A program made the translations under genes and the position numbers. Under the pieces are notes generated by a model. That model saw nothing but the letters and a program-made list of their open reading frames with translations, made no database searches and was not told the origin of the DNA. A stretch of DNA of 64,000 nt, taken from positions 32,001 to 96,000 of the forward strand of contig CAVXEP010000031.1 of NCBI GenBank assembly GCA_963760795.1, in the 5' to 3' direction. Below, piece by piece: positions 29,841 to 40,253 of this stretch (within the stretch, counting starts at the first letter, position 1; every line of letters starts with the position of its first letter). This DNA is from an uncultured delta proteobacterium. GTDB lineage: Bacteria > Desulfobacterota > Binatia > UBA9968.

Positions 29841-30932
29841 TCAAGGGCCGGGGTATGCGGCGGGGACGATCGGTCTTGTGGTTAGGGTCGCGGCGAATTC
29901 ACTGCCGCCATGGCTTACGGTCAACTTGGTGCCCGGCGTCCAGCAGTCTTTGTTGACGTAAGCCCAAGGCAATTGGCCGGTGCAGTGCGAAGGAGACGAC
30001 GGAGCTGGTGATCTGGCCGACCTCTTTGTTGCCGGCGCTGATCTTGTCGCCAGGGCTTGCCGGCGTGTCACCATCGAGCAAGAGCCCGCAGAGTTTCTTG
30101 TTGACATGGCCGCGCGAGCGGATGCGCTCGACCACTTCCTGGCCCAAATAACAGCCCTTGGTGAAACTCACGGCGTCATCCAAGGCAACTTCAAGTAGCA
30201 GATTATCTTCGGAGAAATCAATACCGTACCGAGGAATACCGGCTTCGATGCGCAAGATATTCTGTGCCTGTTCGCCGACCCAGGCGGCGCCCAGTTCGGT
30301 TAACCGTTGAGCAAAGCCCGCGAGCTGAGAAGTTTGCACGATCAGATCGAAGCCGTCATGGCCCGTACGATCGGCGCGCACGACGCAGACCGGAGTGGCG
30401 TCGAATTGCACCATGCCATGGTGATTAGGTTGCAGCCGGCAGCTCGGCGTTGGCAAACAGCTTGGTCAAGCATCACTTGCGCCCGTGGCCCCTGCAGCGA
30501 CAGCATTTTCCATTGCTCATTGGGATCGTGGATCTCCACGTCGTCGGCGACTAGATAGCGATTGAGATGGGTGAGAATCTTTTCTTTCAGCGGCTCCCAA
30601 AAGTCCAGGTAGAAAGAGTTCAGCGAACACAACACGCGCAGGTCGGCGACCACCTTGCCTTGTTGGGTAAGAATCGTGGCCTGCTGGCCGTCGAACATTT
30701 TTAGCGGTCGCAGATCGTTGGATAGCATGCCTTGCAGATAAGGCAGCCGGTCCTCGCCGGTGAATTGCAGCATGGCGCGATTGGCTAGGTCGAACAGGCC
30801 GGCGGATTCACGAACCGATTTGTATTCGCTCGCCGGATCGCCGAAATGGTCGGGCAATCGCCAGCCATCCCGTTCGATGAAAGTCGCCCCCTGGCGTTCG
30901 TGCAAATCCGCTAGTGTCGATCGCTTTGCCAT
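29841..30932 (-). CDS. GcvT/YgfZ family folate-binding aminomethyltransferase-like protein, two frameshifts (~30450, ~29965)
   Basis: GcvT-like N-terminus, LRIEAG, KGCYLGQE motif, IALGYV tail spread over three ORFs. Confidence 0.85.
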
Positions 30933-31051: not shown

Positions 31052-31520
31052 ATGGCAGGACTTGAAGGGCAAAAAGCGCCGGCGTTCACCTTGGCGGGGA
31101 GCGACGGCAAACAACATTCGCTAGCTGAGTACGCTGGCAAAAACGTCATTCTGTGGTTTTATCCGAAAGACGATACACCTGGCTGAACCAAAGAAGCGTG
31201 CGGGTTCCGCGACGCTATCGATACCGTTACGCAAAGCCAATACCGTGGTTGTGGGTGTCAGCCCGGATGGCATCGATTCGCATAATCAGTTCATTAGCAA
31301 GTTTAACCTGCCGTTTATGCTGCTCGCCGACCAGCAGAAAGATACCATGAAGGCCTATGGCGCCTGGGGACCGCGCAAAAATGCCGCGGGCGAAGTCTCG
31401 GAAGGGACGATTCGCTCGACCGCTTTGATCGGCCCCGATGGCACGGTAAAGAAGCATTGGATTCCTGTCACTGATCCCGGCGCGCATCCGGCTGAAGTTT
31501 TGGAATTCCTCGGTAAGTAA
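31052..31520 (+). CDS. bcp: selenocysteine-containing BCP/PrxQ peroxiredoxin (Sec45), plus one extra-base frameshift near 31224
   Basis: GGAGG RBS and ATG 31052: MAGLEGQKAPAFTLAGSDGKQHSLAEYAGKNVILWFYPKDDTPG-TGA(31184-86)-TKEACGFRD; colinear with the Cys paralogue at 35154; C-terminus is ORF 31245..31520. Confidence 0.85.
31195..31216 (+). promoter_or_regulatory. putative bacterial SECIS hairpin
   Basis: AGCGT-GCGG-[GTT]-CCGC-g-ACGCT, G-initiated apical loop starting 18 nt after the UGA. Confidence 0.75.
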
Positions 31521-31536
31521 GTAATCGAAAACCGTA

Positions 31537-31582
31537 GCTGAGGGAGCGCTGCCGATTTTTCATGATGGCGCGCTCCCTCAGC
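31537..31582. repeat. 13-bp perfect inverted repeat (stem-loop without U tract)
   Basis: gctgagggagcgc ... gcgctccctcagc. Confidence 0.6.
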
Positions 31583-31602
31583 GGCGAACCTCTCGGCATT
31601 CC

Positions 31603-32515
31603 ATGGCGAAAATCAAAGCCGACCTCGATCTCCACAAATTAGAAATTTTCTACTGGGTCGCTGAACATAAGAGTTTTTCTCAGGCTGCCGAGCTGCTCTC
31701 ACTGCGCCAGCCCACTATCAGCGCGCATGTCCAAGAGCTCGAAAAAGCGGTTGGCGGCAAACTGCTCTACCGCATGCCGGGCAAGATCAGTCTGACGCCA
31801 TTGGGCCTCATGCTCGCCGAACGGGCGAAGAATCTGCTCGCCTTCAAACGCGAAACCGTTGCCGCTGTGGAGCAGTTTCACGGCACCCTCAGCGGCGAGC
31901 TTTGGGTCGGCGGCAGCAGTGTTCCCGGCGAATATCTCCTGCCGCAAAAGCTCGGCGAGTTCACCAAAAAATTCCCCCAGGTAAAACCGATCCTGCGCAT
32001 CGGCGATTCCGCCGGCGTGATCGCCGATCTGTTGGACGGCAAAGTTGAGATCGGCTTTGTCGGTTTTAACGACGATGACGACCGGCTCATTTTCGAAAAG
32101 ATCTGGGACGATGAAATGATCGTGGCCGTGCCCAAAGGCCATCCATGGAGTACGCGGAAGGCGATTGAAGTCGCGCGATTTGCGCAGTGAAAAATTCATC
32201 TCCCGCGAACACGGCTCGGGCACGCTGGACTCAATCGGGAAATTGCTCGCCAGGCGTAAACAGCCTGCCCGTGAGCTATTGAACATCACCATGGAACTCG
32301 GCAGCACGGCGGCCGTGAAAGAAGCTTTGATGGCCGGTTACGGTTTTTCGATTCTATCACGCATATCGATTCGCCATGAGCTCGACCAAGGCAGCATCGT
32401 CGAGGTGCCGATCCGCGGCGTGAAACTCGAACGGGGCTTTTACCAAGTTTTTCATAGCCGCCGGCCGTTCCATCCCATCGCCCAAGCGTTTCGCGATTTT
32501 CTCAAACGCCGATAA
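31603..32515 (+). CDS. LysR family regulator, CysL-like, frameshift near 32175
   Basis: SFSQAAELLSLRQPTISAHVQELE HTH, SSVPGEYLLP, FISREHGSGT, ELGSTAAVKEA. Confidence 0.88.
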
Positions 32516-32560
32516 CTGCGGCAGTTTTTTTCATCGAAATTTTTATCTCCGCGGTCTTAC

Positions 32561-32575
32561 ATAGCTAATTTCTAT
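32561..32575. promoter_or_regulatory. putative LysR recognition box
   Basis: ATAG-ctaattt-CTAT perfect dyad with T-N11-A spacing, 30 nt upstream of ATG 32606. Confidence 0.6.
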
Positions 32576-32605
32576 TTAGTATATAGCCTAAATGGAGGAC
32601 AAGTT

Positions 32606-33964
32606 ATGGCACTGCCGTTAAAGAGCCGCGGTCCGAGCGCTGCCGAGCAGTTGCGTGACAGGTTGGTCGATGCCTGGGCGCGTTCAGACAAGCTTTTCAA
32701 CATCGTTGGCACGGGCCAAAGTTTAACCAAGCCGATCGTTTGGCGTCATCCGTTTATTTTTTACATCGGTCACTTGCCGGCGTTTTCCTGGAACCAGGTT
32801 TGCGGCGGTATTCTGCAATGGCCGTCTTTCAACGCTTATTATGACGATCTGTTCTGCCGCGGTATCGATCCCGACGTCGACACCGGCGAATGCCACTGGC
32901 ACCCGGAGGTTCCGGAAGAATGGCCAAGTCTTGAGCAAACCGTCAGATATCGTGACCGGGTCCGGCGCGCGCTTTTAGAGTCTACCGAAGCGATTGCCTA
33001 TTGTCGTTCCAGCGATCTGTTGGCCCAAGGCGGGCGCGTCTTTGAGCTGATCTTGGAGCATGAATACATGCATCAAGAGACTTTGCTCTACATGATGCAG
33101 CAGATGGCGCCTGGCGATAAAGTCCGGCCGCGAGAATCTTTCCGTTACTCATTCGGGCGCGCCGCGAGGGTGGAAAGCATTCGCATACCGCGTGGCAAAG
33201 CCCGGCTGGGAGCGTGCTTCGAGGATCTCACTTTCGGTTGGGACAATGAGTTCTCTGATATCACGGTTGATGTCGCAGGCTTCGCGATGGACTCTTTGCC
33301 GGTTACCAATGGCGAATATCTCGAGTTTGTTCTTTCCGGTGGGTACGCGGCGCGCCGCTACTGGCGCGCGGATGATTGGCACTGGAAGGAACTGGAGAAG
33401 AAACAGCATCCGACCGGTTGGTGTAAGCAGGATCACACCTGGTCATACCGTGCCATGTTCGACCACTTACCGTTGGAACAAGTGGCTAGCTGGCCTGTCT
33501 ACGTAAGTCTGGCGGAAGCGCGCGCCTATGCAGCTTGGCGCGGCAAACGCTTGCCGACGGAAGCCGAATATCATCGCGCCGCTTATTACGGTCCGGACGA
33601 ACGGGAGTCGACTTATCCCTGGGGTGACGCGCAGCCGACAGCGCGGCACGGCAACTTCAATTTTACCGCCTGGTCGCCACAGCCGGTCGGCTCGCACCCC
33701 GCGGGTGCGAGCCGTTGGGGAGTTCAAGAGCTGGTCGGTAATGGTTGGGAGCTGACCGATACACCGTTCGCGCCGTTGCCGGGGTTCACGCCTTATATGA
33801 CGACCTATCCCGACTATTCCAAGGATTTCTTTGACGGCAAACATTTTGTCGTCAAAGGCGCCTCCTGGGCCACCGATGCGGGACTGCTGCGGCCAAGTTT
33901 TCGCAATTGGTATCAAGCACATTATCCCTACGTGTTCGCCAAGTTTCGCTGTGTCGCGGATTGA
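32606..33964 (+). CDS. non-heme iron sulfoxide synthase of the EgtB/Egt1/OvoA/SenA superfamily (DinB + FGE-sulfatase domains)
   Basis: FYIGH and EHEYMHQE iron ligands, RGIDPDVD, RLPTEAE, GNGWE, KGASW, FRNWY. Confidence 0.85.
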   Translation: MALPLKSRGPSAAEQLRDRLVDAWARSDKLFNIVGTGQSLTKPIVWRHPFIFYIGHLPAFSWNQVCGGILQWPSFNAYYDDLFCRGIDPDVDTGECHWHPEVPEEWPSLEQTVRYRDRVRRALLESTEAIAYCRSSDLLAQGGRVFELILEHEYMHQETLLYMMQQMAPGDKVRPRESFRYSFGRAARVESIRIPRGKARLGACFEDLTFGWDNEFSDITVDVAGFAMDSLPVTNGEYLEFVLSGGYAARRYWRADDWHWKELEKKQHPTGWCKQDHTWSYRAMFDHLPLEQVASWPVYVSLAEARAYAAWRGKRLPTEAEYHRAAYYGPDERESTYPWGDAQPTARHGNFNFTAWSPQPVGSHPAGASRWGVQELVGNGWELTDTPFAPLPGFTPYMTTYPDYSKDFFDGKHFVVKGASWATDAGLLRPSFRNWYQAHYPYVFAKFRCVAD

Positions 33965-33990
33965 CCCGTGCTCAATCGAAAGGATTAAAC

Positions 33991-34272
33991 ATGAAAGCTG
34001 TTTGGCAGAACACAGTCGTCGCCGAATCAAACGAAACCATCGTCGTCGAAGGCAATCATTACTTTCCGCCGGATTCGATCAAGAAGGATTGCTTCGCGCC
34101 GAGCGACACCCACAGCACTTGTCCCTGGAAAGGCTTGGCCAGTTACTATCACGTCAAGGTGGGCGAGCAAGTCAACCAAGATGCCGCTTGGTTCTATCCC
34201 GAACCGAAGGAGGCGGCCAAGTCGATCAAAGACTACGTCGCGTTCTGGCGGGGCGTGACGATCAGCGAGTAG
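33991..34272 (+). CDS. DUF427 family protein
   Basis: AAGGA RBS, VEGNHYFPP, CPWKGLASYY, AAWFYPEP. Confidence 0.9.
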   Translation: MKAVWQNTVVAESNETIVVEGNHYFPPDSIKKDCFAPSDTHSTCPWKGLASYYHVKVGEQVNQDAAWFYPEPKEAAKSIKDYVAFWRGVTISE

Positions 34273-34285
34273 CAATTCCGCCTTG

Positions 34286-35086
34286 ATGAACACTTTAAAG
34301 CTCGCTTCCTGCATGGCGGAGAACACCGAAGATTTCTGTCGAGCTATCGCCGAGTATCTCCAACGGAAGCTCAATGTCCCGACGGAGTATGTCACCGGGA
34401 TACCATGGCAGGAGCGTGAAGCGCTCTTCGATGGCGGCGAGATTCAAGTGCTTTGGCTCTGTGGATTACCCTACGTGCACAAGGCCGACCTTGCCGAGAG
34501 CAGCATGGAGTTGCTCGCCGTGCCGATACCGGTGGGAGAGCGCTATGGATCGAGACCCGTTTATTTTTCCGACGTGGTCGTGCGCCGGGACAGCACTTGC
34601 CGATCTTTCCGTGACCTGCGTGGCGCGACCTGGGCTTACAACGAGCCGCGCTCCCATTCCGGTTTTAACGTCGTGCGCGCGCATCTGTTCGATCTCGGCG
34701 AAGTCGATCATTTTTTTGCCGCGGCGGTGGAAGCCGGCGCCCATTCCAAGTCGTTGCAAATGATCTTATCGGGAGCCGTCGACGGCGCGGCCATCGACAG
34801 CACCGTGTTGGAGTGGCTCGGCGGCCAGCGGAATGATCTAGCGGATGAGATTCGCGTGATCGACACCATCGGGCCGAGTCCGATTCCGCCCTGGGTGATC
34901 TCGCGCCAGGTTGCGCCATCCCAACGGCAGGCGCTGCGCCAGTTGCTCGGCGAGATGCATCTCGATCCCGCTGGCCGCGAGGTCCTCTCGGATGGCCGAT
35001 GGTTGCGTTTTACCGCGGCCAATGATCACGATTACGATCCGATTCGGGCGATGGCGCTTAAGGCCGAGCGGGTTTCGTTAGTTTGA
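34286..35086 (+). CDS. PhnD/SsuA-like substrate-binding protein lacking a signal peptide
   Basis: WLCGLPY, YFSDVVVR, AYNEPRSHSG, GAH..S, DGAAIDS, DYDPIR. Confidence 0.8.
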   Translation: MNTLKLASCMAENTEDFCRAIAEYLQRKLNVPTEYVTGIPWQEREALFDGGEIQVLWLCGLPYVHKADLAESSMELLAVPIPVGERYGSRPVYFSDVVVRRDSTCRSFRDLRGATWAYNEPRSHSGFNVVRAHLFDLGEVDHFFAAAVEAGAHSKSLQMILSGAVDGAAIDSTVLEWLGGQRNDLADEIRVIDTIGPSPIPPWVISRQVAPSQRQALRQLLGEMHLDPAGREVLSDGRWLRFTAANDHDYDPIRAMALKAERVSLV

Positions 35087-35153
35087 TCGCCTGTGATAAA
35101 TGATTCGTCAGCTTATTGAATATCCCGTCGACAACCCTAGGAGGAGTTGACCC

Positions 35154-35621
35154 ATGGCTAGTTTAGAAGGTAAAAAGGCCCCGGCCTTTAGTCTGGAAGG
35201 CAACGATGGCAAGACGCATTCGCTAGAAGACTACAAAGGCAAAACCGTCGTGCTGTATTTTTATCCAAAGGACAACACGCCCGGTTGCACCAAGGAAGCC
35301 TGCGGGTTTCGCGATCTGAATGCGGCATTGAAAAAATCAAACGCCGTGGTCATGGGCGTCAGTAAGGATAGCCTCGACTCGCACAACAAGTTTGTCGAGA
35401 AGTTTAAATTGCCTTTTGTGCTGTTGTCCGATCCGAAGCTCGAGATGATGAAGAAGTACAGCGCTTACGGCAAAAAAATGATGTACGGCAAGGAAGTGCA
35501 GGGAACGATTCGTTCCACCGTCGTCATCGGTCCCAAGGGTGACGTGATCAAGCATTGGACTACGGTCAAGAAAGCTGAGGAACACCCGCAAGCAGTGCTC
35601 GACTATCTAAAAAATAGTTAG
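35154..35621 (+). CDS. bcp: BCP/PrxQ peroxiredoxin, cysteine form
   Basis: YFYPKDNTPGCTKEAC.FRD, AGGAGG RBS. Confidence 0.93.
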   Translation: MASLEGKKAPAFSLEGNDGKTHSLEDYKGKTVVLYFYPKDNTPGCTKEACGFRDLNAALKKSNAVVMGVSKDSLDSHNKFVEKFKLPFVLLSDPKLEMMKKYSAYGKKMMYGKEVQGTIRSTVVIGPKGDVIKHWTTVKKAEEHPQAVLDYLKNS

Positions 35622-35664: not shown

Positions 35665-35692
35665 TTGACAACCGGCCTTTAAGGGGTATGAT
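35665..35692 (+). promoter_or_regulatory. sigma70-type promoter
   Basis: TTGACA-16 nt-TATGAT upstream of the transglutaminase-like gene. Confidence 0.6.
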
Positions 35693-35736: not shown

Positions 35737-36835
35737 ATGGATCGCCGTGAATTTTTGAAACAGGGCTTGTCCGCCTCGGCGGGATTGGCCTTGGCCGGTA
35801 TGCCGAAATTCGCCGGTTGGGCGCACGCCGATGATCCGACCAAGTGGCGCACTTTCGAGGTGACGACGACTATCGAAGTGAAGGATCCGGTGGGCGGCGT
35901 GCGCACGTGGATACCCGTGCCGTTAACCAGCGCCACGGATTATTTTAAGCGCGAACCTGATACCTGGACGGGCAACTTCAAAGCCGCCCGCGCGGTGCAA
36001 TACGACAAGTACGGCACGGGCCTGGTTTTCGCTGAATGGGCTCCCAGCGAAAAGGCGCCGGCATTGGAAGTGAAGAGCCGCTTCATGACCCGCGACCGTC
36101 AGGTCGATGTGAACGGCAAGCCCAATGCCGCGATCAAAGAGAACCCGGCGGTGCTGACTTATTTTCGCCAACCGTCCAAGTTAATCCGCACTGACGGCAT
36201 CGTGGCGACGACCTCGAAGAGCATCGTGATGGGATTGAAAACCGATGTCGATAAGGCCAAAGCGATTTACGAATGGATTGTCGACAATACCTTCCGCGAT
36301 GCCAAGGTCAAGGGCTGCGGCATCGGTGATATTTCCACCATGCTAGAAAGCGGCTACTTGGGCGGTAAATGCGCCGATCTTAATGCCCTGTACGTCGGTC
36401 TCGCCCGCGCCGCGGGTTTGCCGGCCCGCGACGTCTACGGCGTGCGTGTCGCCGCCTCTTCGGAATTCAAGAGCCTGGGCCGGGCCGACGATATCACGGG
36501 GGCACAGCACTGCCGCGCTGAAGTTTATCTCAATCAGTATGGCTGGCTGCCGATAGATCCGGCTGACGTGCGTAAAGTTGTCCTCGAAGAGAACCTGCCG
36601 GCAGAGCCATTGCCGCTGACCGATCCCAAGGTGAAGCGCGCGCGCGAGAAACTTGTTTGGCGCCTGGGAAATGAACTGGCTGCCGTACAACTACGCCCAC
36701 GACGTCAAGCTGCCTAATTCCAAACTTTCGGAAGTCGCGTTTTTCATGTACCCGCAGTTGGAAACCGCCAATGGCCGGCGTGATAGTTTGGACCCGGCGA
36801 ATTTCAAATACACGATCAAGTCAAAAGAAGTCTAG
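35737..36835 (+). CDS. Tat-exported transglutaminase-like protein, frameshift near 36652
   Basis: MDRREFLK Tat motif, GGKCADL, QHCRAE, W.PIDPAD triad; the C-terminus FGAWEMNW lies in 36653..36835. Confidence 0.85.
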
Positions 36836-36964: not shown

Positions 36965-37824
36965 CTACCTGCTCAGGGCCTCTTGAATTGCCCGGGCGAC
37001 GTAAACGTGGGTGAGATGGGCGCGGTACTCCGACGAGCCGTTGATATCTTCGATGACTTCGATATTGCGGGTTGACTCAGCGGCGGCTTCCTCGATCAAC
37101 TTCTGGTCGAGTTTTTTTCCAGTTAACATCTGTTCGGTGCGCTCGGGCCGGTAGGCTTTGTCAGCGACACCGGTGATGCCGATCGCCGCGCGGCTGCATG
37201 TGCCGGCGGCATCGATAGCCAAGCGCACGGCGACTCCGGTGACGGCGAAACCGGAAGAGCGTGGCGCGGCTTTTTGATAGGCAGTCTTGTCGTTGCCGGT
37301 TATCGGCACCTTGATTCCAGTGACGATCTCGTCCGGCTCCAGCACGCTCATCAATAAACCGAGAAAGAAGTCGTCGCACTTCACAAAGCGCTCGCCGCTG
37401 GGACCGAAGACGCGAATCTCGGCATCGAGGGCGATTACAGCCGCCGGCCAATCGCCGGCCGGATCGGCGTGGGCGATGCTGCCGCCGATGGTGCCGCGGT
37501 TACGCACCTGCACGTCGGCGATGGTGGTGGCGGTTTGCGGCAGCAGCGGACACTTGGCTTTGAGCAGGTCGGAATATTCAATCTGCTCGTGAGTGACCAG
37601 CGCGCCGATGATGAGATTGTTGCCGTCTTCGCTTATGGTATCCAAGCCGGGGATGCGGCCGATGTCGACGATGTAGGCAGGCTTTGACAAGCGCATTTTC
37701 ATCAGCGGCAGCAAGCTCTGCCCGCCGGAGAGAATTTTTACATCGTCTCGATGATCCGCGGAAGACCTTTAACCGCGTCGGCGAGAGATCGGGGCGCAAA
37801 GTATTCGAAGGAGCCGGGTATCAT
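36965..37824 (-). CDS. Mo-hydroxylase FAD-binding subunit (CoxM-like), frameshift near the 5' end (~37760)
   Basis: MIPGSFEYFAPRSL start at 37824, LSGGQSLLPLMK, QVRNRGTIGG...HADPAGD. Confidence 0.88.
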
Positions 37825-37826
37825 GA

Positions 37827-40253
37827 CTAGAAAGTCCTCCGCTCTTTTTCCGGATTGTGATTGATCAGACGCCACACCGCCTCGGGTGTGATCGGCAGGT
37901 CGCAAACTTTCGCGCCGTAGGGTTGCAAGGCATCCTCGACTGCACTGGCGATGGCGGCGGGCGAGGGGATCGCCGCGCCTTCGCCGGCGGCCTTTTGCCC
38001 AAGCGGCGTGAACGGCGAGGGCGAAGGCTGGTGGACGACTTCGACGCGCGGAGTTTCCGCGGTGGAGCATTTGCCGTAGTCGAGATAGGTGATGGTCAAC
38101 GGTTGGCCTTCCGGGCTGTACATGAAGCCTTCGCCCAGGGCGACGGCGATGCCATGAGCAGCTGAGCCGTAGACCTGGCCGTTGACGACATCGGGATTGA
38201 TCACCGTGCCGTTGTCGCCGACGATCAAATAGCGCAGCACATGCACCGAGCCGGTGTTTTTGTCGACTTCGACAATCGCCGCATGGGCGCCGGCGGAAAA
38301 GGTAAACTGCGCGCGTACTCTTCGGTCGGCGCCGGGCACGATGTTCGGTTTGGCATGGGGAAACATGTAGTAGAAGGTCGCCTCAAGCCCTGGTTCCATA
38401 TCGTCGGGGATCAGATGCTGGTTGTTGTAGGCGATGCGGCCCAACTCGGCGAAGGTGATTTGCTTCGCTGCCGCGCCGGGCACTTTCACTACGCTGTCTT
38501 CAATCGTCAGTTCGGACGCCTCGACTTTCAGATTAAACGCTGCGAGCTTGAGAACTTTCTCGCGCAGCTTGGTCGCCGCGCCGTGGATCGCGCCAATGTC
38601 GTAGAGATGGAAATTGTTGCCGCTATTGGCCGCGGCCACGCCCCAGGAGGACAGATCGCTATCGAAGGGGATACTGGTGCTGAATCTGTCCGGTGTCGAG
38701 CCGAGGATATCGGCGGCGACTTGCGCGGTGGTCGTTTCATGGGCCTGGCCGCAGTTTGGCGAACCTAAATGAAGCGACAGCGTGCCGTTCTTTTCCAGCT
38801 TGATTTTCGCGCCGTTGACGCCGCCGGAGCCGGGCGGTTCTTTCATCTCGGGAAAGATCGCCATATCGCGCGCCGCATTGCGTCCGCCGGGCTCGACACC
38901 GACGACGATGCCGATGCCGATCAGCTTGCCTTGTTCGCGCGCTTGCTTTTGCTCTGCGCGCAACTTGTCGTAGTCGATTTTCTCTAAAAGGGTTTTTAGC
39001 AGGCCGGGGTAATCGCCGCTATCGTAGACGTTGCCGCTGATGGTCGTGTACGGCATCTCGTTGGCCTGGATGAGATTTTTCCGGCGCACTTCTATGGGGC
39101 TCAAGTTGAGCGCCTGGGCGACCCGGTCCATCATCCGTTCCCAGATGAAACACATGCCCGGCTTGCCGATGCCGCGGTTGGGGATCACCGGACATTTGTT
39201 GGTTACCACCGCGTTGCCTTCCATGTAGATCGCCGGTGTCTTGTAGGTGTTCGACAGATTGTTGAGCTTGTTGGTGAAGTGAATCGTCAGCGTGCTGATG
39301 GAGCCGCCGACATCATCATATTCTTTAAATTTAAGACCCAACACCGTGCCATCGTTCTTCACCGCCGCTTCAGCTTCGATTTCCTGGGCGCAGGCATGGC
39401 CGCCGGCCATCATGTGTTCCGTCCGGTCCTCGATCCATTTCACCGGCCTGCCGGTTTTCATCGCCAACAGCGACACCAGCACGACGTACTTGCGGATTAA
39501 ATGAATCTTTTGGCCGAAGCCGCCGCCGACATCGGGGATGATCACGCGGATGTCTTGCAGCCCGAGGGCTTCGCGCAGGCCGTCGTAGATCACTTCCGGC
39601 ACCTGAGCGGTCACCCAGACGGTAAGCCGTTTGCTCGCCGCGTCGAAGGACGCGATGACGTTGAACGGTTCCAGCGGCGTCGAGCTGTAACGATGAATTT
39701 TTAATGTCTCGGTAACGACACGGTCGGCAGATTTAAACGCCGCGTCGATGTCGCCATATTGCAGCGAGCCGGTCCAAGCCAGGTTGCTGCCGAGCTCGTC
39801 GAACAATGCAGCCGACGAAGGTTTGATCGCTTCGTGGACATCGACGTTGGGGCGCAGCGGCTCGTAGTTGACTTGGATTAATTCGAGGGCATCTTCCGCC
39901 GTGCCGCGATCCCACGCCGCCACCGCGCCGATCGGCTCGCCGACGTAACGAACTTTGTCCACCGCGCCGGCGTACTCGTCAATTGGTCTTTTCAAACCAG
40001 CGGCGTAACGGCCGGGTTTGAATGGCTTGGTGAGTTTCTTGACATCATCGGGTGTGATCACCGCGAAGACGTTGGGATGGGTCAGCGCCTCGGACGGATC
40101 GACGGAAAGTATTTTTGCATGGGCGTGAGGACTGCGCAGGATCATCGCCTGGAGCATGCCCGGCATGGTGAAATCGTCGGTGAAAAGACCGCGGCCAGTG
40201 ACATGGCGCGGTCCTTCTTTGCTGCGCGAACGGTTGCCTACGAACTTAGCCAT
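37827..40253 (-). CDS. xanthine-oxidase family molybdopterin-binding large subunit
   Basis: RSPHAHA, VGGGFGQK, GQAHETT.AQ, GQVYG, KAAGE; active-site loop PNRGIG. Confidence 0.92.
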   Translation of the reverse strand: MAKFVGNRSRSKEGPRHVTGRGLFTDDFTMPGMLQAMILRSPHAHAKILSVDPSEALTHPNVFAVITPDDVKKLTKPFKPGRYAAGLKRPIDEYAGAVDKVRYVGEPIGAVAAWDRGTAEDALELIQVNYEPLRPNVDVHEAIKPSSAALFDELGSNLAWTGSLQYGDIDAAFKSADRVVTETLKIHRYSSTPLEPFNVIASFDAASKRLTVWVTAQVPEVIYDGLREALGLQDIRVIIPDVGGGFGQKIHLIRKYVVLVSLLAMKTGRPVKWIEDRTEHMMAGGHACAQEIEAEAAVKNDGTVLGLKFKEYDDVGGSISTLTIHFTNKLNNLSNTYKTPAIYMEGNAVVTNKCPVIPNRGIGKPGMCFIWERMMDRVAQALNLSPIEVRRKNLIQANEMPYTTISGNVYDSGDYPGLLKTLLEKIDYDKLRAEQKQAREQGKLIGIGIVVGVEPGGRNAARDMAIFPEMKEPPGSGGVNGAKIKLEKNGTLSLHLGSPNCGQAHETTTAQVAADILGSTPDRFSTSIPFDSDLSSWGVAAANSGNNFHLYDIGAIHGAATKLREKVLKLAAFNLKVEASELTIEDSVVKVPGAAAKQITFAELGRIAYNNQHLIPDDMEPGLEATFYYMFPHAKPNIVPGADRRVRAQFTFSAGAHAAIVEVDKNTGSVHVLRYLIVGDNGTVINPDVVNGQVYGSAAHGIAVALGEGFMYSPEGQPLTITYLDYGKCSTAETPRVEVVHQPSPSPFTPLGQKAAGEGAAIPSPAAIASAVEDALQPYGAKVCDLPITPEAVWRLINHNPEKERRTF

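Follow-up and report, generated by a model that had tools for sequence, protein, structure and literature searches.

The window analysed here is a stretch of 64,000 nucleotides (nt) from contig CAVXEP010000031.1 (assembly GCA_963760795.1) of an uncultured delta proteobacterium of the Binatia. Between positions 31052 and 35621 it carries six co-oriented genes on the + strand, bcp1, lysR_Se, egtB, a DUF427 gene, a phnD-like gene and bcp2, and the locus is best explained as an antioxidant module, linked to selenium, in an uncultured soil bacterium. We propose that the regulator encoded by lysR_Se would control an operon reaching from egtB to bcp2 through a conserved operator in the egtB promoter and that the operon would be induced at selenium shortage. 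For this statement as a whole, with shortage induction as the favoured direction, we see about an even chance of its being right. The inferred parts of it are that the regulator binds the operator, that selenium is the signal, which way the regulation goes and which substrates the enzyme EgtB uses.

All six genes lie where a sequence-only reading of the window had placed them. That reading had described a selenocysteine (Sec) and a cysteine version of one peroxiredoxin at the two ends and short gaps among the last four genes, and both points were upheld by the open reading frames (ORFs) and domain matches; the gaps between egtB, the DUF427 gene, the phnD-like gene and bcp2 measure 26, 10 and 67 nt, respectively. 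The synteny check that it had called for showed that the genes are co-conserved. The order bcp1(Sec)-lysR-egtB-DUF427-(phnD-like)-bcp2 was found in 15/15 same-genus loci, one of which (L045) comes from the unpublished genome G004, and because it recurs in this way the arrangement is not due to chance. The wider synteny (HAD, NUDIX, Rieske and GcvT-like genes before the module; transglutaminase-like, coxM and coxL genes after it) is retained down to about 53% EgtB identity in 54 loci from species-representative genomes. Two layouts occur among these loci: Sec-bcp1 is located 5′ of lysR, as in this genus, or a bcp1-type gene with Cys stands between lysR and egtB. Public records list the relatives as delta proteobacterium, Candidatus Binatia or Syntrophobacter sp. 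SbD2.

The lysR_Se gene (31603..32515, +) encodes a protein with HTH_1 and LysR_substrate domains and is present in a single copy in the genome. Among the NCBIfam models, NF040786 (selenium metabolism-associated LysR) fits the protein best. The window copy, which is split, scores 167 + 77.7 bits (cut-off 250), and 8/8 intact orthologues reach the cut-off (250.5-267.8 bits), about 100 bits over the next LysR model. Scoring against a selenium-associated model was a check suggested by the sequence-only reading, and it came out in favour of this family; the label "CysL-like" which that reading had given to the protein has to be dropped. The genomic context is that of LysR_Se as well: the genome decodes Sec, a Sec gene is the immediate neighbour of lysR in 15/15 same-genus loci, and order-wide a TIGR04553 gene adjoins lysR. 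By these matches, the predicted regulator is a member of the LysR_Se family and of the HrsM orthologue group.

LysR_Se was defined by Lin et al. (2015), who reported it only in SelD-containing organisms, proposed that it regulates Sec-decoding genes and placed archaeal HrsM in the same subfamily as an orthologue (PMC5322559). The analogy to HrsM drawn in the sequence-only reading is thus in fact orthology. HrsM represses the Cys isogenes of selenoenzymes at adequate selenium, and transcripts of putative transporters rise on selenium depletion in M. maripaludis (PMC11097638); selenophosphate has been suggested as the HrsM effector (PMC5322559, PMC11097638). With HrsM of Methanococcus voltae and M. 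maripaludis (Sun & Klein 2004, via PMC5322559 and PMC11097638), the present system shares the NF040786/LysR_Se subfamily, the occurrence of Sec and Cys versions of one enzyme in the genome, a regulator gene adjoining its presumed targets and a plausible selenium-status logic. In contrast to HrsM, it belongs to a bacterium, its cargo is antioxidant (PrxQ and an ergothioneine synthase, where HrsM has hydrogenases), the proposed operator is new, the Sec/Cys pairing varies among relatives, and the system is known from sequence alone. With the LysR_Se genes located beside selA, selB or selD, as described by Lin et al. (2015), it has the regulator family and the Sec-decoding organism in common, whereas here and throughout the order the gene is divergent from a GcvT/YgfZ-like gene and is followed by a TIGR04553 transporter or by PrxQ/egtB; selD and selB are on another contig.

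The spacer between lysR and egtB has diverged freely in 16 aligned intergenic regions, save for one invariant block, CATAG-N7-CTAT-N7-ATAG. The putative LysR_Se operator within it, ATAG-N7-CTAT-N7-ATAG (32560..32586, +), comprises three half-sites in 27 nt, stops some 20 nt short of the egtB start codon and overlaps the putative egtB core promoter. We collected 24 distinct versions of the operator from relatives. In this genome it is the sole outstanding match (34 bits versus 20 for the next best), and a genome-wide scan with the full 36-nt matrix recovered this site and no other. The −35-like hexamer, TTAGTA in this genus, is degenerate, and the operator overlaps the putative −10 box, which looks like the layout of a repressor site.

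The regulator and its operator are conserved well beyond this genus. Members of NF040786 over the cut-off were found in 49 of the 61 genomes sampled from the order. The gene after lysR_Se encodes a TIGR04553 putative selenate ATP-binding cassette (ABC) binding protein in 16 of 30 order-wide loci (directly in 14, after PrxQ in 2); 16/16 of these ORFs tested scored 301-346 bits (cut-off 250), and PhnC comes next where the DNA is visible. In the other 14 loci lysR_Se is followed by an ORF of the same size which was not scored (5 loci), PrxQ and egtB (3), egtB of the same genus (3), a permease gene (2) or the contig end (1). An element of the ATAG-N7-CTAT type lies between lysR_Se and the next gene in 25/29 order-wide loci from three families; it usually reads CTAT-TTGACAT-ATAG and is present whether the next gene encodes EgtB, PrxQ, a permease or the TIGR04553 protein. 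The regulator and operator are thus an old unit, which seems to have had a selenium importer as its ancestral cargo. PrxQ, egtB, the DUF427 gene and the phnD-like gene were inserted behind the same operator in this family.

The importer is also found within the genus. In L035, the closest relative of the window, and in L037 and L040, bcp2 is followed by a TIGR04553 gene (335-344 bits) and phnC; scores for the two phnE genes were obtained for L035 alone. The slot after bcp2 is occupied by a transglutaminase-like gene in the window (35737-36835) and in most relatives, and by the importer genes in L035 (2168-5574). No TIGR04553 member was found in this genome (assembly 89% complete), in which the best match scores 138.7 bits against the cut-off of 250. 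A promoter-like site at 35665-35692 (11/12 consensus matches) precedes the transglutaminase-like gene. The promoter/terminator consensus scan is useful for this strong site only: the bcp1 and egtB promoters were not flagged, and there were 4 terminator-like matches versus a shuffle mean of 6.2. RNA-library contigs (X16) cover parts of the locus, among them 32421-32669, which spans the lysR-egtB gap, and 34001-34338, from DUF427 into the phnD-like gene; such libraries may contain DNA and their contigs do not show single transcripts, and they were not counted as evidence of expression. In two loci of one genus (L104:2507-3547 and L111:2495-3544), the gene behind the operator encodes a membrane protein of about 350 aa with weak matches to SO_0444 (56 bits) and SaoE (37 bits), a possible alternative selenium-related transporter.

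The bcp1 gene (31052..31520, +) encodes an AhpC/TSA-fold protein with PrxQ models as best matches, and PF00578 matches both of its pieces (59.7 and 49.2 bits). A TGA at 31184-31186 (codon 45) is located at the peroxidatic position in the context PKDDTPG-U-TKEAC, the resolving Cys lies five residues beyond Sec, and both the UGA and an open frame to the normal end were found in 15/15 relatives. A hairpin resembling a Sec insertion sequence (SECIS) element (31193..31219, +) is predicted to begin 7 nt past the UGA and has a G/U-rich apical loop. Its fold energy is unremarkable (whole-window z = −0.86), and the fold alone is weak evidence. The 22 nt that begin 9 nt past the UGA are identical in 16/16 sequences, and third codon positions, variable in 129 of the 139 codons outside codons 45-58, do not vary at all in codons 49-54. 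A SECIS element would be expected to leave such a footprint of invariant synonymous sites. An Rfam scan of the window returned two tRNAs only and no SECIS family match, which is uninformative as a suitable model may not exist. Genes for Sec decoding are present in the assembly, tRNA-Sec on contig C13 and both SelD (378.6 bits, itself with a UGA) and SelB (410.5 bits) on contig C11.

The AhpC/TSA fold, the UGA in PxxxTxxU with the frame kept beyond it, the SECIS hairpin and the Sec-decoding genes together show bcp1 to encode a predicted PrxQ/BCP peroxiredoxin with selenocysteine. Sec-peroxiredoxins that carry a TxxU motif form an established family of selenoproteins (PMC13188914). With this family, represented by PrxU of Eubacterium acidaminophilum, bcp1 shares the UGA at the peroxidatic residue, PxxxTxxU, the SECIS element just 3′ of it and the AhpC/TSA fold. 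It differs in belonging to the PrxQ/BCP subfamily, with the resolving Cys five residues on, and in having a paralogue partner whose Sec or Cys state changes from species to species. Between bcp1 and lysR, a 12-bp perfect inverted repeat forms a stem-loop (31538..31581, +), in which RNAalifold predicted 9 pairs, 3 of them with compensatory changes, from 11 sequences; it lacks a U-tract and does not qualify as a canonical terminator. As the promoter-like TTGACAATGC box that was ancestrally that of lysR is now located upstream of bcp1, bcp1 and lysR may form one transcript.

The final operon gene in the window, bcp2 (35154..35621, +), encodes the Cys form of PrxQ/BCP. The two genes fall into separate paralogue clades (SH-aLRT, the Shimodaira-Hasegawa-like approximate likelihood ratio test, 99 and 99 in a quick tree), each with Sec forms nested among the Cys forms; the tree has SH-aLRT support only and a midpoint root, on which the number of Sec/Cys transitions depends. 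Both PrxQ genes were readable in 22 loci of relatives (L053 was not), and the bcp1/bcp2 states were Sec/Cys, as in the window, in 10 of these, Sec/Sec in 6, Cys/Sec in 4 and Cys/Cys in 2. The pairing of an upstream Sec with a downstream Cys version, on which the sequence-only reading was built, is thus the commonest state and the one present in the window, but with 12 of the 22 loci differing from it, it is not a fixed design. At least one Cys-PrxQ is kept behind the operator in 16/22 relatives' loci and also in the window.

The egtB gene (32606..33964, +) encodes an NHISS enzyme of 452 aa with DinB_2 and FGE-sulfatase domains. Among solved structures, EgtB-IV matches it best (8VIH, 213 bits), with EgtB-I and OvoA scoring lower. 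In alignments to 8VIH, 4X8B and 8UX5, the iron ligands are H56/H152/H156 and the catalytic tyrosine is Y401. Its hercynine-type motif Y404/N434/W435 aligns with Y401/N430/F431 of OvsA-YNF and with RNW of EgtB-I and EgtB-IV. The last two positions are N-W in EgtB-I and in both EgtB-IV chains, and Y-A in OvoA (motif F/Y/A). These three positions decide between hercynine and histidine, as shown for OvsA (M401/Q430/A431) versus SenA-like Y/N/F (ovoselenol preprint), and histidine-using AshA has H/F/Y there (PMC13674229). Orthologues with 38-50% identity come from records labelled Acidobacteriota, Eisenbacteria, Thermoanaerobaculia, Terriglobia, Aquabacterium and Leptothrix, and egtD directly adjoins the outgroup egtB orthologue in 10 of 12 loci. 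Of the other two, L095 has none and L076 has no usable ORF calls; its ORFs gave no Pfam match even for NHISS, which is uninformative and does not count as a negative.

Because of the Y/N/W motif, EgtB-IV as the closest structure and the outgroup adjacency to egtD, the enzyme is best read as EgtB. It is predicted to be an ergothioneine-type sulfoxide synthase of an OvoA-like or type IV-like branch that joins hercynine and cysteine. An identity as OvoA was rejected on its 259 bits, on N-W in place of Y-A and on its end at residue 452 without the C-terminal methyltransferase domain. An identity as SenA was rejected on its 221.4 bits (cut-off 420) and on the true SenA and SenB encoded on contig C6. 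With the two-gene ergothioneine systems (type II/IV EgtB with EgtD; 8VIH, 6O6L) the window enzyme shares the DinB and FGE domains, the 3-His site, the catalytic Tyr, Y/N/W and the lack of EgtA, EgtC or EgtE, and its nearest outgroup orthologues form egtB-egtD pairs. In contrast to these systems, egtD is located apart from egtB, with senA and senB on another contig, egtB lies inside a LysR_Se operon together with peroxiredoxins, and the protein scores below the TIGR03440 cut-off. Two egtB orthologues (G004:C68:44387-45739, from the unpublished genome, and G011:C2:11023-11997) are each reported with one in-frame TGA.

The absence of egtD, senB and selD from the window, stated in the sequence-only reading, is correct, and the assembly has these genes on its contigs C6 and C11. 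The sole EgtD of this genome (G000; 297.3 bits, cut-off 290.9) is encoded on contig C6 beside SenA (482 bits, cut-off 420) and SenB (402.7 bits, cut-off 300), and EgtD was found in 30 of 31 genus genomes. This selenoneine-type cluster (locus L047, 4427-17203) is outside the window. A betaine-type ABC transporter (a fused permease and binding protein with a ProV-like ATPase) is divergent from egtD there, and genes for an FGE-sulfatase-only protein and a GlcNAcase-like protein lie between. The genome search found neither EgtC nor EgtE at the cut-off. The novel thio- or seleno-histidine pathway that the sequence-only reading had envisaged did not find support, the enzyme being a predicted ergothioneine-type EgtB with EgtD encoded elsewhere next to SenA and SenB. 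Judged from these genes, the cell is able to produce selenoneine as well as ergothioneine from a common pool of hercynine. With the selenoneine cluster senA-senB-senC and egtD, which Kayrouz et al. reportedly described in 2022, the genome shares SenA, SenB and EgtD at full score, whereas the window enzyme is not SenA (221 bits against 420). Co-occurrence of egt and sen clusters exceeds expectation (ovoselenol preprint). A single hercynine pool with its sulfur branch under a selenium regulator was not found in the accessible parts of the selenoneine literature.

The two remaining genes of the operon are facultative. The DUF427 gene (33991..34272, +) encodes a small protein of PF04248 (113.6 bits) and follows egtB in 21 of the 31 loci with visible downstream DNA. 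DUF427 genes are also located beside egtB-egtD in the Aquabacterium and Leptothrix loci. DUF427 occurs in 5.7% and ABC_peri_selen in 3.1% of NHISS neighbourhoods (Table 1, PMC13674229). DUF427 is thus a recurrent but facultative companion of ergothioneine genes; the DUF427 structure in the PDB (3DJM) is labelled uncharacterised. A role as C-S lyase or as a handler of the sulfoxide or sulfenate, suggested by the beta-tent fold shared with MsrB, was set aside as speculation, since it is backed by co-location only and DUF427 is absent from 10/31 loci.

The phnD-like gene (34283..35086, +; PF12974, 140 bits) is present in 19/31 loci. The sequence-only reading had described its product as signal-less, and the data agree: PF12974 matches from profile position 11, and there is no hydrophobic N-terminus. 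The ATG at 34313 is the likelier start. Homologues are uniformly 257-276 aa long. The scores against PhnD (83.6 bits) and ABC_peri_selen (62.2 bits) are both far under the cut-offs; the protein was rejected as a TIGR04553 member with 62.2 bits against 250, a match starting at profile position 20 and no signal peptide. No PhnC or PhnE gene lies in the gap between the phnD-like gene and bcp2, and a look-up in the ESM Atlas returned PF12974 clusters only, with no functional lead. We predict a cytoplasmic binding protein of the PhnD/SsuA fold without a signal peptide. Our guess is that DUF427 might handle or bind ergothioneine or hercynine and the PhnD-like protein an oxyanion.

The module comes and goes as one block among the 31 genus genomes sampled (G004 included), which are kin, so that the counts are not independent events. 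The egtB gene is present in 24 of them, and LysR_Se was found in 23 of these 24, over the cut-off in 19 and split beside egtB in 4 (G000, G018, G019 and G020). None of the seven egtB-less genomes has LysR_Se at the cut-off, and none of the five tested has the PrxQ paralogues. As SelB is present in 4/5 egtB-less genomes, Sec decoding persists without the module. The module behaves as a dispensable block that is not needed for Sec use or for the selenoneine genes.

Both bcp1 and lysR of the window carry a 1-base insertion that breaks the frame (near 31231/2, 46 nt past the UGA, and near 32175, respectively), a feature which the sequence-only reading did not mention. Both genes are uninterrupted in 15/15 same-genus loci. 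The inserted bases are missing from Logan contigs of DNA runs X1, X3 and X5, which come from three studies and are 95-99% like the window; these contigs represent close relatives, not demonstrably the same strain. Further extra bases in the window, at 29963 in the GcvT-like gene and at 36655 in the transglutaminase-like gene, are missing from the X3 and X5 contigs and from the X1 and X5 contigs, respectively, and few-contig assemblies of relatives have similar scattered breaks in egtB, coxL and coxM. Since the breaks are absent from relatives and short-read contigs and similar ones occur elsewhere, those in bcp1 and lysR are probably assembly errors.

Several neighbouring genes deserve a brief comment. 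Upstream of bcp1, a GcvT/YgfZ-like folate-binding protein gene (29899..30932, −; PF01571 and PF08669), which frame breaks divide into two pieces in the window, is divergent from lysR_Se, and the same divergent pair, followed by a Rieske protein gene, was found in 29/30 order-wide loci of three families (L103-L132). This is the classical position of a target of a LysR-type transcriptional regulator (LTTR). A function of this protein as a methyl-selenide demethylase of the DmdA type was rejected: the intact orthologue in L031 passes the TIGR03317 YgfZ domain cut-off (77.5 bits versus 49), and the DmdA score of 88.9 bits is below 410. It has no link to selenium so far. Downstream, genes of a CoxM/CoxL-type molybdenum hydroxylase (window 36965-40253, −) adjoin the module in nearly all relatives. 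A third peroxiredoxin gene, about 36-39% identical to bcp2 and absent from the window, lies between the NUDIX and Rieske genes in ten loci (L052:1424, L055:3228, L056:3245, L060:3036, L062:3222, L068:3632, L084:3408, L085:966, L087:3415 and L089:3425); with a TGA in the context FYPLDFTGG-U, it probably encodes another selenoprotein. A thioredoxin-fold gene at L084:13301 (−) and L087:13249 (−) has an in-frame TGA in the context VFYRGYW-U-TYC and may encode a UxxC selenoprotein.

In the mechanism that we favour, LysR_Se would bind ATAG-N7-CTAT-N7-ATAG in the egtB promoter and set the expression of the operon by selenium status. The operon egtB-DUF427-PhnD-like-PrxQ (bcp2) would be under one operator, with bcp1 and lysR upstream of it. 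EgtB would join hercynine, provided by the EgtD encoded beside senA and senB, and cysteine into the ergothioneine precursor, and the C-S lyase step would be carried out by a non-dedicated pyridoxal phosphate enzyme. At adequate selenium the operon would be off. Shortage would turn on selenium import, the importer still being in the operon of close relatives, together with sulfur stand-ins, ergothioneine for selenoneine and Cys-PrxQ for Sec-PrxQ. We favour induction at shortage because HrsM acts in this direction, because nutrient importers are usually induced by shortage and because a Cys-PrxQ is kept in 16/22 loci. A more tentative extension, possible but with the balance against it, is that the system would be a two-level bacterial counterpart of HrsM, which would govern an importer together with stand-ins for both a selenoprotein and a selenometabolite and would also include a feedback on lysR. 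As lysR lies behind the Sec-PrxQ gene and the conserved stem-loop, read-through of the UGA could report selenium status to the expression of lysR.

A number of observations weigh against this proposal. Sec is present in bcp2 in 10/22 loci, and 6 loci have Sec-PrxQ only, which is a poor fit to a backup for selenium starvation. If the TTGACA embedded in the operator of other families is the −35 box, the operator is located at roughly −50 to −25, a layout that resembles LTTR activator sites. A scan with the 22-nt operator core gave 33 matches of more than 13 bits versus 19 in the shuffled genome and no second convincing site, and it yielded no regulon. The accessible literature contained no target, operator, signal, expression or binding data for a bacterial LysR_Se. 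The selenium labels of NF040786 and TIGR04553 both derive from genomic context and hence are not mutually independent. In G083, egtB is present and LysR_Se was not found, and egtB-less G008 has two adjacent LysR_Se pieces (116 + 112 bits) that may represent a split LysR_Se without egtB. The relatives with the module are kin sharing the wider synteny, and counts among them overstate independence. The logic could also be the opposite one: LysR_Se would act as an activator of the operon while selenium is at hand or being taken up, and importer, Sec-PrxQ, ergothioneine and peroxiredoxin would rise together to use selenium or to counter the oxidative stress of selenite uptake. An operator placed like LTTR activation sites, a Sec form of bcp2 that is sensible only with selenium present, the degenerate TTAGTA hexamer, as expected of activator-dependent promoters, and the proposal of Lin et al. 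(2015) that LysR_Se controls Sec-decoding genes (PMC5322559) all speak for it. We nevertheless regard it as somewhat unlikely, given that HrsM, the only studied member, is a repressor at adequate selenium (PMC11097638). The retention of at least one Cys-PrxQ in 16/22 loci and in the window argues in the same direction. So does the usual induction of importers by shortage.

The selenium link itself would fall away if the genes formed an ordinary oxidative-stress operon whose LysR senses peroxide or thiol status, the selenium flavour being a by-product of a selenoprotein-rich lineage and of names derived from context. The N-terminal lysR piece does match OxyR with 89 bits, Sec decoding exists without the module in 4/5 genomes, and no further operator sites were found near sel or sen genes in the genome-wide scan. 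We consider this unlikely: NF040786 leads the next LysR model by about 100 bits in intact orthologues, in three families the TIGR04553 transporter comes after the regulator and its operator, and a Sec gene adjoins lysR in every same-genus locus. Slightly less probable still is a module decaying in this strain, with real breaks in bcp1 and lysR leaving a constitutive egtB-PrxQ(Cys) operon; if the breaks were real, the switch would be dead in this strain. Both breaks are single-base insertions outside long homopolymers, and the importer is missing from the assembly, but similar breaks occur in neighbouring housekeeping-type genes within the same 7 kb (29963 and 36655) and, scattered, in egtB and coxL of few-contig relatives, and the insertions are missing from three independent short-read data sets of near-identical strains. 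The product, finally, might differ, with the NHISS enzyme making a seleno-histidine or a new thiohistidine, perhaps from selenocysteine or another selenium donor, and with DUF427 and the PhnD-like protein as enzymes or carriers. The enzyme indeed scores below every curated equivalog cut-off, which also counts against our own assignment: 259 bits against at least 400 for the N-terminal part of OvoA (TIGR04344), 221.4 against at least 420 for SenA (NF041186) and 221.1 against at least 360 for EgtB (TIGR03440), whose coverage of the type IV branch is uncertain. It also sits in a selenium-linked operon in a genome without a dedicated EgtE or EgtC at the cut-off, and fungal Egt1 can use selenocysteine. 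A motif of the same kind as in EgtB-I and EgtB-IV, classical egtB-egtD pairs as nearest outgroups, a full-scoring SenA/SenB already in the genome and the facultative nature of DUF427 (21/31) and the PhnD-like protein (19/31) make such a product very improbable in our view.

Some parts of this system were known before: Sec-peroxiredoxins, LysR_Se as a bioinformatic family, cysteine-type EgtB, the excess of egt and sen co-occurrence and DUF427 near NHISS genes. As far as our searches reach, three points are new, namely that egtB and PrxQ stand behind an operator of LysR_Se, this operator as such and its order-wide link to TIGR04553. A full-text search, with subscription papers and the Seyedsayamdost supplements outside its scope, found no paper joining ergothioneine, egtB, LysR and selenium, and among the matching papers, judged by their titles, none on a link between LysR_Se and TIGR04553 or a selenate ABC transporter was found.

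The locus and its relatives provide a testable 27-nt operator, a defined target operon and a candidate importer; no dedicated selenium importer was known in any organism according to the accessible part of the M. maripaludis paper (PMC11097638). DUF427, a widespread companion of ergothioneine genes, would gain a regulatory context if the proposed control by LysR_Se is true. The findings suggest that microbes balance selenoneine versus ergothioneine by selenium supply, and such balancing, if true, would explain why egt and sen clusters co-occur in excess (ovoselenol preprint).

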